Below are positions 55-18,324 of a stretch of DNA of 64,000 bases, one piece after another; within the stretch, counting starts at the first letter, position 1; each line of letters begins with the position of its first letter. Source of the DNA: Escherichia phage Turkey5. A program made the position numbers and the translations under genes. The notes beneath the pieces are model-generated. The model had not been told where the DNA came from. It saw only the letters and a list, made by a program, of their open reading frames with translations, and ran no database searches. The stretch is taken from the sequence record PQ471516.1, one strand, 5' to 3'.

Positions 55-387
55 ATGTTGGATTCAAATACTCGTATTCTACATTTATGCCCTAATAGTA
101 ATCACTTCTACTGTTGCAGTACAGCAGAGCACAGTACTATGGAGTTCAGTAGGAGTAGTCCTATTATTTTTTATAAATGGAATGTAGAGGGTTCTAACTA
201 TACTGACTGTACACACCAGATAGATGCAGAAGTACTGGATGAGCCGTGGGATTCTTCTGATTATTATTTTCAGATGAGCACTGTGTACGAAGAAGATGTA
301 CTTGACACTTTAGTACTGATGTGGTACTTTAAGCACAGAACAGATTATCCAGATTTCTATCTGGAGTACTACCACGACTTAGGCTAA
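55..387 (+). CDS. Family-A paralog (FQ-S motif family), hypothetical; may be 5'-truncated at window edge (no in-frame stop upstream)
   Basis: C-terminal core DYYFQMSTVYEEDVLDTLVL shared with ~33 downstream paralogs. Confidence 0.55.
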   Translation: MLDSNTRILHLCPNSNHFYCCSTAEHSTMEFSRSSPIIFYKWNVEGSNYTDCTHQIDAEVLDEPWDSSDYYFQMSTVYEEDVLDTLVLMWYFKHRTDYPDFYLEYYHDLG

Positions 388-396
388 GAGGATTAT

Positions 397-945
397 ATGG
401 ATTACACATTTAATGGTTTAGAGTACAGGCACTGTATTGCAATGGCTAAAGTACTGGAGTACGTTATGACCAGATTGCAATGCAATGAATTTCTTAAGCG
501 AAATGACTTATATCTAAATTCCGATGGTTTCTTGTTTGCTGACAATGATGATATTGACTTTGATCGTTGCGTTCGTATTGGTAAAGAAACCATATCAAGA
601 GCCGGATGTATGGGTGCAGTTCTTACGCATTGTATTTCTTTTTACCCAGATGGTCATACGATTCGTATTGTTCAAGGACATGAAAGCTCTTTTTCGTTTC
701 AAGACAATCCAGATTTTGAATCGTTGTTCTTCCAGAACATTTTAGTACTTGAACCTATGAAAGTACTATATATCGTAGTGTTCAATTATTTGCACAACAT
801 TAAATGCATAGATTCATTTGATATAGAAATGAGTCTTATGCGTATTATCAATCAAATACCTGAACTTCAGAGTATTACCGAAGAACCGTACTTCGACGAT
901 TTCACAGAATTATATCGTATGCACCGCTTTGAAGGAGATGAATAA
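397..945 (+). CDS. Family-A paralog, hypothetical protein
   Basis: ATG with AAGAGGA RBS; core SLFFQNILVLEPMKVLYIVVF. Confidence 0.6.
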   Translation: MDYTFNGLEYRHCIAMAKVLEYVMTRLQCNEFLKRNDLYLNSDGFLFADNDDIDFDRCVRIGKETISRAGCMGAVLTHCISFYPDGHTIRIVQGHESSFSFQDNPDFESLFFQNILVLEPMKVLYIVVFNYLHNIKCIDSFDIEMSLMRIINQIPELQSITEEPYFDDFTELYRMHRFEGDE

Positions 946-1427
946 TGTCATTTAACGGAGCACTTGAAAAAGCTAATACTATTTTCGAGTACTATAAACT
1001 ATTTCGTAATGGTGACTTGGATGAACTTTTTCATTACAGCGATGATTCTGATTCATACTATCATAACAATAGTGATGGTAAGACATGGATAGTATACAGT
1101 ACTAGTGTATCACATGAAACTATTGAGTACTGCTGCAATCCAGACAGGGAATATATCATGTACAGTCATAATTCTGAATATATTAAACTTGAATTATGGA
1201 CACCTGATGAGTGGACTTACAAGAAGACAACCGCCGATGGTGATGAGTTAAATGCAATGTACCAAGATTGGTTATCAGAAGATTATTACTTCCAGCAAAA
1301 TACTTTGCACAAGGAAATGTATCTTGATGCTATGGTAGTTCTTTCTTATCTTCGTTCTAAGAATTTAAGTCCTTTTTATTTGAATTTAGGTTATCTTGAA
1401 GAAATCAAGAAGTCAATGCAGGGGTAA
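945..1427 (+). CDS. Family-A paralog, hypothetical protein
   Basis: 1-nt overlap with upstream stop; GAAGGAG RBS; core DYYFQQNTLHKEMYLDAMVV. Confidence 0.65.
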   Translation: MSFNGALEKANTIFEYYKLFRNGDLDELFHYSDDSDSYYHNNSDGKTWIVYSTSVSHETIEYCCNPDREYIMYSHNSEYIKLELWTPDEWTYKKTTADGDELNAMYQDWLSEDYYFQQNTLHKEMYLDAMVVLSYLRSKNLSPFYLNLGYLEEIKKSMQG

Positions 1428-1430
1428 TCA

Positions 1431-1778
1431 ATGAAAACTGAAATAGATGTAACTAACTTTTCGTACAACGGTACACTGTATTGTATTTTTAAACTCAATA
1501 ACAAAGATGTATCAATTCGTGCTCTTTATAATATTTGTACTACCGAAACTGAATACGATTTGTACATAGTTAAAGATGAACGTGGTGAGCGTGGTAGGAT
1601 TCCTAATTACGCTGAATGTTCATACAGGGATGAATATGAAGCTTTTATGTTCCAGGAATCCTTAGTATGGGAGAAGGATGTTGATTTCTTCTTAGTAAAA
1701 GAAATCCAAGAGTACTTCCAAAGTAATTACAAGAAGTTTATAAATGATGATTCCAAATTTACTTTAATACTAGGATAA
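1431..1778 (+). CDS. Family-A paralog, hypothetical protein
   Basis: core AFMFQESLVWEKDVDFFLV. Confidence 0.65.
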   Translation: MKTEIDVTNFSYNGTLYCIFKLNNKDVSIRALYNICTTETEYDLYIVKDERGERGRIPNYAECSYRDEYEAFMFQESLVWEKDVDFFLVKEIQEYFQSNYKKFINDDSKFTLILG

Positions 1779-1781
1779 TTT

Positions 1782-16050: not shown

Positions 16051-16052
16051 TT

Positions 16053-16469
16053 ATGTTACTGTATCATGCCAGCCCAGTTAAAATTGAAAACTTTTACATT
16101 CCATTCGGTGGTTTGCATCTGGGCGGCAAGAACAGTGCACTGGAAGCTGCCCTACGCAAGCTGAGAAGCCCTCTGAACGTCGTAGACGCTAATACGGTAC
16201 ATCTGCATACCTGTGAGGTTAACGTCTCTAAAGTGTATTACAGCGATGATTTGGGTAGTGATGATTCATGGCGTGAGCTTATTGAGTACTGCCAAGCTAA
16301 TGGCTATGATGCAGTACAGTACAAGAATGAGTTCGAGCCTGATGCTGTTCCTAGCTACATGATTTGGGATGTATCTAACATTCGCATCGTTGAAGTTGAT
16401 CCTATGCATATGGATGATGCAGAAATGATTTTGGAGGATTTCTATGCAGAATATGAAGGACAATCTTGA
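16053..16469 (+). CDS. Hypothetical protein, compositionally distinct (GC-richer) insert within array
   Basis: 138-aa ORF; N-terminal LYHASP...GGLHLGG; no FQ-S core; codon usage visibly GC-richer than neighbours. Confidence 0.5.
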   Translation: MLLYHASPVKIENFYIPFGGLHLGGKNSALEAALRKLRSPLNVVDANTVHLHTCEVNVSKVYYSDDLGSDDSWRELIEYCQANGYDAVQYKNEFEPDAVPSYMIWDVSNIRIVEVDPMHMDDAEMILEDFYAEYEGQS

Positions 16470-16977
16470 GTGCACTAAGGTAATCTTGAAGATTGCTGAA
16501 ATTTTCAGTACTTTATTGAGCGATGGAAAGATTACAGATGATCTGGTTCTTCCATACCCGTGGAAATTTTCTAAATTTTCTATATTTTATAAATTAGAAT
16601 ACAAAGAACATGCTGTACTGGAGTTTAATCCTAAAGCTGATTTCATTGAGAATAGTACACTGTTCGGGAAGAGTGGGTGCTATACATCGGACTTCAAAAA
16701 GATTACTACGCATATTCGTCCTTCTCCAGAAGAAAACGAGTTCCATTCATTTCTGTATCCTGAATTTAAGTTAACAGAAGAACTACTATTTCAGTACTCA
16801 TTATTGTTCGAAGATGTACAAGATTTAGAGTTCTATAAAGAGTTAGTAGAAACTTTTAAGAATGTGAACCTTAAAAAAGATATTCTTATATTCTGGTTCA
16901 TGGAGTATATTTCGAAGGATTTGCTAGATGAGTTTCTTCTAAATATGACAGCAATTAAGGAGAAGTTATATGCTTGA
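16444..16977 (+). CDS. Family-A paralog, hypothetical protein
   Basis: core EELLFQYSLLFEDVQDLEF. Confidence 0.65.
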   Translation: MQNMKDNLECTKVILKIAEIFSTLLSDGKITDDLVLPYPWKFSKFSIFYKLEYKEHAVLEFNPKADFIENSTLFGKSGCYTSDFKKITTHIRPSPEENEFHSFLYPEFKLTEELLFQYSLLFEDVQDLEFYKELVETFKNVNLKKDILIFWFMEYISKDLLDEFLLNMTAIKEKLYA

Positions 16978-17443
16978 CATTTTAGGTAATATTGATACAG
17001 TAAACTATTTCGTACAAGATGCATTGGTTGGGATTACATCTAAGCCATTGCAGGTTCGCAACAATTTCCATCAGGGTGATGGATACATAGTGGACATTAC
17101 TGAACCGAAAAAGAATGTATTCAATGTTAACATTGCAACAACAGGTCGTAACAATATCGCACGAATTATCATTGACAAGAATGAAATTGTTCTTCGTTAC
17201 AATGCTAAGTTCATGATGTTCTTCAAGAGTAAGACTGACATGTTCAGTACTAATCTCTTTGATGAACCATTTAAATTAGAAGATATCGAAGCAGTGTTCT
17301 TTACACAGAGTACGTGCTTTAAGTTCAAAGATGTAGAATTCAGTCCTGATGTAATGGCTGAAACTTTACAAATGCTAAGGATTATCTATTATGGGTTTAA
17401 TGAGTTTGCACAAGAACGAAACCAGGTTAACAACTGTAGATGA
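16970..17443 (+). CDS. Family-A paralog (divergent), hypothetical protein
   Basis: core EAVFFTQSTCFKFKDVEF. Confidence 0.55.
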   Translation: MLDILGNIDTVNYFVQDALVGITSKPLQVRNNFHQGDGYIVDITEPKKNVFNVNIATTGRNNIARIIIDKNEIVLRYNAKFMMFFKSKTDMFSTNLFDEPFKLEDIEAVFFTQSTCFKFKDVEFSPDVMAETLQMLRIIYYGFNEFAQERNQVNNCR

Positions 17444-17849
17444 AACAATCGAGGCAGTACTGGCGAATCTTAGCTCCAAGAGGGATTACTGGTACAAAGG
17501 TATCCGTCTGTATCGTTTAACTGATCGTCACAATCAGGTTACAAATCAGTACGGTACACAGCAAGTCAAGTTCACTGCCTCAAAACGTAACACAGGGTTT
17601 GAAATTTCATGTGTAGTGTTAAATCTAAGTAAAAAACTTCTTGAATGCAATGAAGATTGTGCTATAATGTATGCATCTGGTAACGAAGAGATCAAGATTG
17701 ATTACAGTACACTAGATGAAATTGACTTCTTTCAGTACGAATGCATTGGCATTCAGACTCTGGGAGTTTCTCATGATAAACTGAAGAAACTAATTCATAC
17801 ATTAAAGGGTATAATTGAACATGCAAGTAACTCCGCGTCTAAAGCTTAA
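17391..17849 (+). CDS. Family-A paralog, hypothetical protein (start uncertain)
   Basis: core EIDFFQYECIGIQTLGV. Confidence 0.55.
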   Translation: MGLMSLHKNETRLTTVDETIEAVLANLSSKRDYWYKGIRLYRLTDRHNQVTNQYGTQQVKFTASKRNTGFEISCVVLNLSKKLLECNEDCAIMYASGNEEIKIDYSTLDEIDFFQYECIGIQTLGVSHDKLKKLIHTLKGIIEHASNSASKA

Positions 17850-18324
17850 TTTAGAAAAAATTGCTGATTGTCTTCGTACTAACAATATGGATCATAGTCT
17901 TTCGATTACAAGTGACCATATCCAATGTAGTACTAATGATTATACCGTACTGTTCGGGTTTCATAGCCTACGTTTGTCAGTAGTAAATAATCATGATGAC
18001 ACAGCAATTGTCATTACACCTTGTGATGTACTGAACAATGAAGGTGAAGTACTTCACAAGAAACAAACCGTATTCCATATCTTCAGGGGTGATGAGCCAC
18101 AAGCATTGGAATACGATACACTGAACGTTGATAGTGGTGAATTGTTCCAGTTGGGTTTAGTACACGATTGTACTTTCATGGATAACCGAGTAATTCTTCC
18201 TTTGTTGTTGAATATTCTGGTTAACCTTACAACATCTTCAATCCGACACTTCAACGATTCTATTTTAGTACAGGCGATGATAAACGTTTCAGAGGCAATC
18301 GAGGAATACAAAGTCGCCAGTTAA
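17815..18324 (+). CDS. Family-A paralog, hypothetical protein
   Basis: core GELFQLGLVHDCTFMDNRVIL. Confidence 0.6.
   Translation: MNMQVTPRLKLNLEKIADCLRTNNMDHSLSITSDHIQCSTNDYTVLFGFHSLRLSVVNNHDDTAIVITPCDVLNNEGEVLHKKQTVFHIFRGDEPQALEYDTLNVDSGELFQLGLVHDCTFMDNRVILPLLLNILVNLTTSSIRHFNDSILVQAMINVSEAIEEYKVAS

Follow-up and report, generated by a model that had tools for sequence, protein, structure and literature searches.

What unites the long run of small genes at the start of this stretch of DNA from Escherichia phage Turkey5, and what might so many of them do for the phage? The stretch, 64,000 nucleotides (nt) of record PQ471516.1 and hereafter called the window, opens with 41 consecutive plus-strand genes (g01-g41) between positions 1 and 19826. 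A sequence-only reading had proposed that about 34 of some 40 of these genes are diverged paralogs sharing one conserved core, and had taken them for a diversified effector repertoire of a family that it did not recognise. The window comes from an Asteriusvirus, a PBECO4/121Q/RaK2-like jumbo coliphage, with vB_EcoM_JNE01 (hereafter JNE01) as its nearest record. As judged by profile comparison, the array is a single, old and very diverged family of small proteins, which accounts for approximately three quarters of the window's first 19 kb. It is a new family of an already known sort of feature, the tandem paralog array.

Pairwise similarity among the 41 proteins is weak, with only nine genes linked at E<=1e-3 in an all-against-all phmmer comparison, and profiles were therefore needed. 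An iterated hidden Markov model (HMM) grew from these nine genes to 29 at convergence while recruiting none of 396 decoys, which comprised the other open reading frames (ORFs) of the window, minus-strand ORFs, and reversed and shuffled sequences. When each member was left out in turn, 23 of the 29 were regained at E<=1e-3 and 28 outscored the best decoy. Once members from PBECO4 and JNE01 had been added to the profile, the count rose to 31 of the 41 window genes, still without a decoy, and a profile trained on the window alone retrieved 39 genes in PBECO4 as well as four genes in JNE01 that lie just upstream of the window and had formed no part of the training. In addition, g34 is a probable member, its hhalign probability of 52% being confined to the motif block. 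The genes g33, g37, and g41 carry a motif-like string only, for which profile-profile comparison gave no support of membership, and membership of g06, g10, g15, g28, g35, and g40 was not supported in the profile or hhalign comparisons. The family thus stands at 31 supported genes and one probable gene in the window (31-32), with approximately 40 in the whole phage. The all-against-all alignment and HMM suggested by the sequence-only reading therefore bear out its family as coherent, at a somewhat lower number than it had estimated. The member proteins are small (about 100-210 amino acids, aa) and mostly acidic, the median isoelectric point being 4.88 for the array proteins versus 5.56 for the other window proteins. 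Mean column identity among the window copies is 15%, and identity between copies ranges from 10 to 28%.

What the members hold in common is a block of 14 residues, [ST]-E-E-x-[YF]-F-Q-x-S-[TL]-[VIL]-[YHW]-D, derived from 134 non-redundant members, of which 99% carry the F and 98% the Q; the two E residues and the S are found at 63-75%. Information per column reaches 2.14 bits within the block, compared with 0.65 in the part preceding it and 0.71 in the part that follows. The pattern FQ.[STC][TLFCS][VLIMT] occurs in 17 of the 41 array proteins and in none of the 92 other window ORFs, the mean being 0.15 in 1000 shuffles, and the motif is hence far commoner than composition predicts. Its placement differs from that first described: rather than forming a C-terminal core, the block lies at approximately 60-70% of the length of each protein and is followed by a tail. 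The N-terminal parts are indeed highly variable, as had been claimed, but the tail after the motif is equally diverged. Both synonymous codons of F and of Q, and both serine codon boxes, are in use across the members, so the constraint acts on the protein; a nucleotide-level element was rejected on the same observation.

AlphaFold models were obtained for g03, from 29 sequences (predicted local distance difference test, pLDDT, 72.9; predicted template modelling score, pTM, 0.70), and for g05, from 134 sequences (pLDDT 76.3; pTM 0.72). The two models agree on an N-terminal helix, a three-stranded beta-meander, a helical hairpin, a short strand, and a C-terminal helix, and this predicted family fold is held with moderate confidence. 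The motif block forms the first helix of the hairpin, where pLDDT reaches 94-96 in both models, and the N-terminal helix is missing from the short members.

None of the curated libraries recognised these proteins. When all 41 proteins were scanned against Pfam at E<=0.01, no significant match emerged, SUKH, SMI1_KNR4, Syd, and US22 included; NCBIfam likewise gave no significant match for the array proteins, with SUKH, Syd, and US22 again covered; PADLOC matched none of the 41; and a PDB sequence profile search with the family returned no match. The members therefore do not dissolve into unrelated known families, and the family remains as unfamiliar as the sequence-only reading had found it. 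The array proteins match 32 PHROG groups, all of unknown function. Foldseek comparison of the AlphaFold models against the predicted viral structures of BFVD returned only uncharacterised proteins of 121Q, RaK2, and SP27, and weakly of GAP32 and an Erwinia jumbo phage. No description of the family was found in the literature; the RaK2 paper reports that paralogues make up about 10% of the RaK2 gene products and holds nothing further on the point (PMC3622015).

The array runs past the left edge of the window, where JNE01 has nine further members upstream, and the portion in the window is the downstream three quarters of the whole tandem array. Counted with the same profile, copy number is 47 in fEgEco12, 41 in 121Q, 40 in PBECO4, and about 40 in JNE01, falling to 28 in Klebsiella phage RaK2, 20 in Salmonella phage Munch, and 5 in Cronobacter phage GAP32; an EJP2-like contig holds 18 members in 17 kb. 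A HMMER scan of 1.84 billion representative proteins gave 81 matches at E<=1e-3, all of 93-210 aa, and those that were traced all came from Asteriusvirus, EJP2-like or RaK2-like phages; a word-indexed search of 5.8 billion proteins gave eight matches, all near-identical, and tblastn with the HMM consensus gave none, probably an effect of the low-complexity filter. The family thus appears so far to be known only from RaK2-like jumbo phages. In Munch, a clear family-like gene and two marginal candidates are located approximately 9-12 kb downstream of the main array (segment coordinates 31711-35096) among nucleic-acid metabolism genes, so that the family is not strictly limited to one block.

That the family is old and under purifying selection is seen from several directions. 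By megablast with positions 1-20000 as the query, JNE01 is 96.8% identical to the window over 1-13874, the match halting there because record OR670491.1 ends inside the array; the start of the record resumes the match. This record both starts and ends mid-array, and its ends are therefore not the physical ends of the genome; synteny with fEgEco12 would put the physical left end some 27 kb upstream of the array. The remaining Asteriusvirus records align over 0-6% of 1-20000, as opposed to 41-64% of 20001-64000 at approximately 80% identity, and the array region is therefore far more diverged than its surroundings. Gene for gene, the window array is collinear with that of PBECO4 from g04 to g41; the family members show 21-52% identity, compared with 89% for g40, 76% for g35, and 89% for DNA ligase. 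In RaK2, whose ligase is 59% identical, collinearity is kept in the 3' block g33-g41 only. Direct DNA repeats within the array are 20-40 nt stretches of motif codons only, with no long repeats, and recent duplication was rejected on this ground. Measured against JNE01, the family has a ratio of nonsynonymous to synonymous substitution rates (dN/dS) of 0.31 and the remainder of the window one of 0.19; comparisons within the PBECO4 group give 0.25 for the N-terminal part and 0.19-0.24 for the C-terminal part, with neighbouring genes at 0.16-0.25. The deep divergence between lineages can be explained by weak but real constraint acting over a long time. One member, g13, is without a counterpart in JNE01 (16% of the gene aligns), even though the two phages are approximately 97% identical around it.

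The genes are tightly packed, with 34 of the 40 junctions either overlapping or separated by no more than 10 nt. Six gaps are of approximately 40 nt or longer, and five of them contain at least one regulatory site, strong promoters being found in three (2478, 7168, and 10462) and terminators in three (10430, 14246, and 18950); the 40-nt gap after g39 holds neither. Both terminators and the promoter named by the sequence-only reading are among these sites (Table 1). Within the cassette 10422-10490, neither the terminator hairpin nor either promoter hexamer differs in PBECO4, fEgEco12, and JNE01, in contrast to the spacer and the coding flanks, and the cassette is the sole part of the 10-11 kb region that megablast matched in PBECO4, UB, and SP27. 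A further possible promoter at 14256-14284 (TTGACT, 17 nt, TACTAT) is a candidate picked out by eye, not among the promoter-scan sites shown; it lies ahead of g32 and shares sequence with the 3' half of the 14246-14269 terminator.

The position of the array in the genome can be read from fEgEco12, whose ends were mapped by restriction digests and whose direct terminal repeat is 20,993 bp (PMC13070987). There the array occupies 27,270-56,262, starting approximately 6 kb inward of the mapped 21-kb terminal repeat, and all genes there, the array and the run of small genes ahead of it alike, read away from the left end. The corresponding side of the genome was proposed in the CBB paper to be an early region with RpoD-like promoters (PMC5259590). 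The virion proteome of phAPEC6 (62 proteins, Table 1 of that study) includes no family gene (gp404c-gp466c), and there is no entry between gp347 and gp549. The promoters and terminators, the position near the terminal repeat, and the absence from the virion proteome together fit early, non-structural proteins. We infer that these tightly packed operons are read early by host RNA polymerase from sigma-70 promoters, the timing following from promoters and genome position, and that the family proteins are probably not virion components.

What the proteins do is a matter of weighing. The best guess, tentatively preferred although held at a little under an even chance, is that the array is a battery of host-interaction proteins serving host takeover or counter-defence. 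On this proposal, the helical hairpin would provide the common scaffold or docking surface, and each paralog would owe a target of its own to the variable beta-meander, loops, and tails. Much of the sequence-only interpretation survives here, namely one family, a conserved core, variable flanks, and host-type promoters and terminators. Diversifying selection is not supported: the dN/dS comparison that it had suggested, made on whole genes and on N- and C-terminal parts, showed no gene-wide positive selection (0.31 against JNE01; 0.19-0.25 in the PBECO4 group). Its picture of a fixed scaffold carrying a variable surface holds in so far as a short core does lie between highly variable flanks, but the near-invariant F-Q pair could be the sign of a binding site common to the members and not of a scaffold alone. 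Several points weigh against the host-interaction proposal. Besides the lack of gene-wide positive selection, the dN/dS of the family differs little from the values for small genes nearby, so that an arms race is not demonstrated; the AlphaFold models are only of moderate confidence; the near-invariant polar Q, E, and S could denote a shared site rather than a scaffold; and, with no match in PADLOC, Pfam, NCBIfam or the PDB, no target can be named.

The chief rival, judged unlikely but deserving the most attention of the alternatives, builds on the last but one of these points. It holds that the EE-FQ-S helix binds one partner, be it a host hub or a phage machine, while the variable parts recruit or modulate clients in an adaptor-like manner; among phage machines, the ClpP-like protease and the replication or transcription apparatus would be examples. 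The retention of F (99%), Q (98%), and E, E, and S (63-75%) at a pairwise identity of about 15% speaks for such a partner, since polar residues that are nearly invariant usually signal function rather than packing, and a ClpP-like gene does lie in the same window at 42424-43119. Set against this, AlphaFold packs the helix into the domain with confidence, and the conserved residues are spread over most of its faces, as would fit a structural core.

A role internal to the phage, with the paralogs as regulators of transcription or replication or as assembly chaperones, is a less probable alternative again. The gene order conserved across lineages, the steady purifying selection, and the nucleic-acid metabolism genes among the downstream neighbours are all in keeping with such housekeeping. 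Copy number that swings from 5 to 47 between related genera is not, nor is a presence/absence difference between phages whose DNA is approximately 97% identical, which would be unusual for a core function; Pfam and NCBIfam detected no DNA-binding or enzymatic domain, and the proteins are acidic.

Slightly more improbable still is the view that the array consists of past tandem duplicates that helped to fill a large capsid and are individually of little function today. It draws on the published proposal that jumbo phages grew partly by tandem duplication (PMC5646251), and it would account for the extreme divergence, for a dN/dS no different from that of other small early ORFs, and for the presence or absence of g13 between close relatives. 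Filler of this kind would not be expected to show a dN/dS of 0.2-0.3, well below 1, nor reading frames intact in all genomes examined; collinear homologues persist, the motif is kept across genera with a ligase only 59% identical, and the regulatory sites are conserved. The weakest alternative is a short linear motif, whether a protease site of the tobacco etch virus (TEV)/NIa type (ExxYxQ, then G or S), which the EEMYFQGS or EEGYFQGS of some members resembles, or a beta-clamp-binding peptide (QL[SD]LF-like), which QxSL[LV][YF] recalls, and it is very improbable given that the block is modelled as a helix at pLDDT 94-96 in both cases, with a packed amphipathic helix after it, a setting unlike an exposed linker or disordered tail, and that most members have a variable residue between Q and S, unlike Q-[GS]. 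This structural context tells against both the protease-site and the clamp-motif readings.

Table 1. Genes and regulatory sites of the paralog array, in window coordinates.
Feature	Position	Strand	Status	Length (aa)	Motif	Remarks
g01	1-387	+	member		SSDYYFQMSTVYE	5' end cut by window edge; JNE01 homologue 159 aa at full length
g02	397-945	+	member	182	ESLFFQNILVLE	
g03	945-1427	+	member	160	SEDYYFQQNTLHK	AlphaFold model 1
g04	1431-1778	+	member	115	EAFMFQESLVWE	short form
g05	1782-2162	+	member	126	TEEGFFQLSLLYN	AlphaFold model 2
g06	2164-2475	+	non-member	103		positional homologue in PBECO4
promoter	2478-2505	+				sigma-70-type, 12/12 consensus matches with TG; gap before g07
g07	2522-2833	+	member	103	NEEELFQFSLVWE	short form
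g08	2834-3298	+	member	154	TEEGFFQLETMYY	
g09	3295-3831	+	member	178	EEQCFQLRCTDE	weakest; fails leave-one-out
g10	3828-4037	+	non-member	69		
g11	4024-4524	+	member	166	ADSYFQYSFVYD	
g12	4511-5053	+	member	180	DAALFQYSTLYS	
g13	5034-5384	+	member	116	AAKLFQIHTIWS	absent from JNE01
g14	5386-5754	+	member	122	EGELFQLSTVWD	
g15	5735-6277	+	non-member	180		
g16	6237-6590	+	member	117	EGELFQNMCVLP	
g17	6584-7171	+	member	195	TEESFFMHSTLYS	M replaces Q
promoter	7168-7197	+				sigma-70-type, 11/12 matches with TG; gap before g18
g18	7232-7705	+	member	157	SSEDYFMNLFLFP	M replaces Q
g19	7662-8186	+	member	up to 174	SEDSYFQYLCIHD	true start uncertain
g20	8176-8517	+	member	113	STEELFQMSCSDD	
g21	8521-8916	+	member	131	SSEEIFQYSLVHK	
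g22	8917-9384	+	member	155	SPENFFQQSLLYP	
g23	9381-9926	+	member	181	TEEEEFQFSLIQD	
g24	9913-10431	+	member	172	TEEGRFMLSTVLD	M replaces Q
terminator	10430-10447	+				intrinsic, AAGACCC-TTAT-GGGTCTT then T run
promoter	10462-10490	+				sigma-70-type, TTTACA, 17-nt spacer, TG-TATAAT
g25	10521-11060	+	member	179	IESTYFQMCTLHD	
g26	11047-11616	+	member	189	ESSWFQYSLLDN	
g27	11609-12187	+	member	192	QGKVFQMITVED	
g28	12180-12728	+	non-member	182		
g29	12725-13180	+	member	151	DSLYLQYSSTYN	L replaces F
g30	13173-13658	+	member	161	DELQFQLSTLYK	
g31	13658-14239	+	member	193	SEEWYFQNSLLHH	
terminator	14246-14269	+				intrinsic, 10-pair stem then T run
g32	14306-14860	+	member	184	SPDEHFQCSTLYS	marginal in leave-one-out
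g33	14862-15476	+	doubtful	204		AQILTLT at motif position; positional homologues in PBECO4 and RaK2
g34	15454-16050	+	probable member	198	NERIFQKSTVQDN	
g35	16053-16469	+	non-member	138		begins MLLYHASPVKIENFYIPFGGLHLGG
g36	16444-16977	+	member	177	TEELLFQYSLLFE	
g37	16970-17443	+	doubtful	157		carries AVFFTQSTCF; 67% identity to PBECO4 homologue
g38	17391-17849	+	member	152	EIDFFQYECIGI	via enlarged profile
g39	17815-18324	+	member	169	SGELFQLGLVHD	via enlarged profile
g40	18365-18838	+	non-member	157		
hairpin	18950-18970	both				terminator-like, closes array
g41	18978-19826	+	doubtful	282		EYMFQVELTLD near C-terminus; hhalign E 0.002-0.01, probability 4-12%

Two of the non-members in Table 1 merit separate mention. 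The gene g35 has conserved counterparts in 73 phage records, which take in every RaK2-like genus as well as some Vibrio phages; the putative label of ADP-ribosyltransferase that it bears in two GenBank records was rejected, being without Pfam, NCBIfam or PDB-sequence support. The gene g40 (phrog_16362) is strongly constrained, with 61% identity to RaK2 in addition to its 89% identity to PBECO4, the neighbouring family genes being at 21-52%. Across the window (1-64000), the plus strand carries nearly all genes, and no tRNA gene or Rfam family was detected at gathering score. The ClpP-like protease gene, annotated in relatives as ClpP proteolytic subunit or head maturation protease, shares the early-side region with genes for ligase, RNA ligase, polynucleotide kinase, PhoH, and anaerobic ribonucleotide reductase, and ClpP-like genes are the only protease genes noticed in the annotations.

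At approximately 29 kb, the family takes up about 8% of a 350-kb phage genome, every record of which annotates the genes as "hypothetical protein". Once it is seen as one family, whose F-Q pair is invariant and whose copy number follows the phage genus, what had been a block of ORFans becomes a defined target. Should the members be host-interaction proteins, the repertoire would be one of the largest of its kind described from a phage and would bear on why jumbo phages retain large genomes.

Among known systems, the early and pre-early blocks of T5-like phages are similar in having unidirectional small genes near a long direct terminal repeat under host-type promoters, which agrees with the layout of fEgEco12 and with the early region proposed for CBB; unlike in the array, the early genes of T5 do not constitute one paralog family, and early timing is here deduced from promoters and position. 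Closer to hand, a 2017 study proposed that jumbo-phage genomes grew partly by tandem duplication and described a tandem array of "very similar" 121Q genes (PMC5646251). The 121Q phage group and genome growth by tandem duplication are shared with the present case. These genes most likely correspond to a run of about 28, each encoding approximately 70 aa, that lies directly upstream. The family of 100-210 aa is a separate set and appears far more diverged; its members, at 15% mean column identity, are not very similar to one another. This run, which also precedes the array in fEgEco12, comprises 121Q genes 319-346 (segment 5737-12195) and fEgEco12 g057-g084 (segment 1336-7525), and it adjoins the family array upstream, just after the 21-kb terminal repeat. 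Phage G offers another tandem array noted in a jumbo phage, with about 35 zinc-ribbon copies (Iyer et al. 2021, PMC7824862).

Large viral paralog families provide a second comparison. For poxviruses and giant viruses, genomic accordions and multigene families with a proposed role in host interaction have been described (PMC13359090). As in such families, the array is a large paralog family near a genome end, with a copy number that differs between relatives. Accordions consist of recent, nearly identical copies, whereas here identity is 10-28%, long repeats are absent, gene order is conserved, and the host is bacterial. The accordion model hence fails on the recency of the copies, although copy number does vary as it would require (5 to 47, with g13 absent from JNE01). 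The multigene families of African swine fever virus are a further case of large viral paralog families.

The nearest parallel is with the SUKH "poly-immunity" arrays of bacteria and the US22 arrays of betaherpesviruses, which have been interpreted as sets of alternative binders for diverse targets (Zhang, Iyer, Aravind 2011, PMC3113570). Membership of SUKH, Syd or US22 itself finds agreement in the tandem arrangement (31 members in 19 kb) and none in sequence, in the fold of a solved member or in toxin linkage, Pfam having detected no toxin (nuclease or deaminase) domain in or beside the array. In further contrast to SUKH and US22, the family is confined to one phage clade, and it reaches 40-47 copies as against up to about six in tandem for bacterial SUKH. 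A stronger form of the host-interaction proposal, possible but decidedly doubtful, is that the 40 or more positional paralogs, built on a fold that has no solved relative, would each act against a separate target, whether a toxin or defence effector of the host or an object of takeover, through a shared F-Q mechanism, and would so be the counterpart of the poly-immunity and US22 arrays. With the US22 arrays, the present array shares the setting of a multigene array in a large DNA virus, and with both it shares a tandem arrangement in which the paralogs of a single small alpha+beta domain have diverged strongly and their number depends on lineage.

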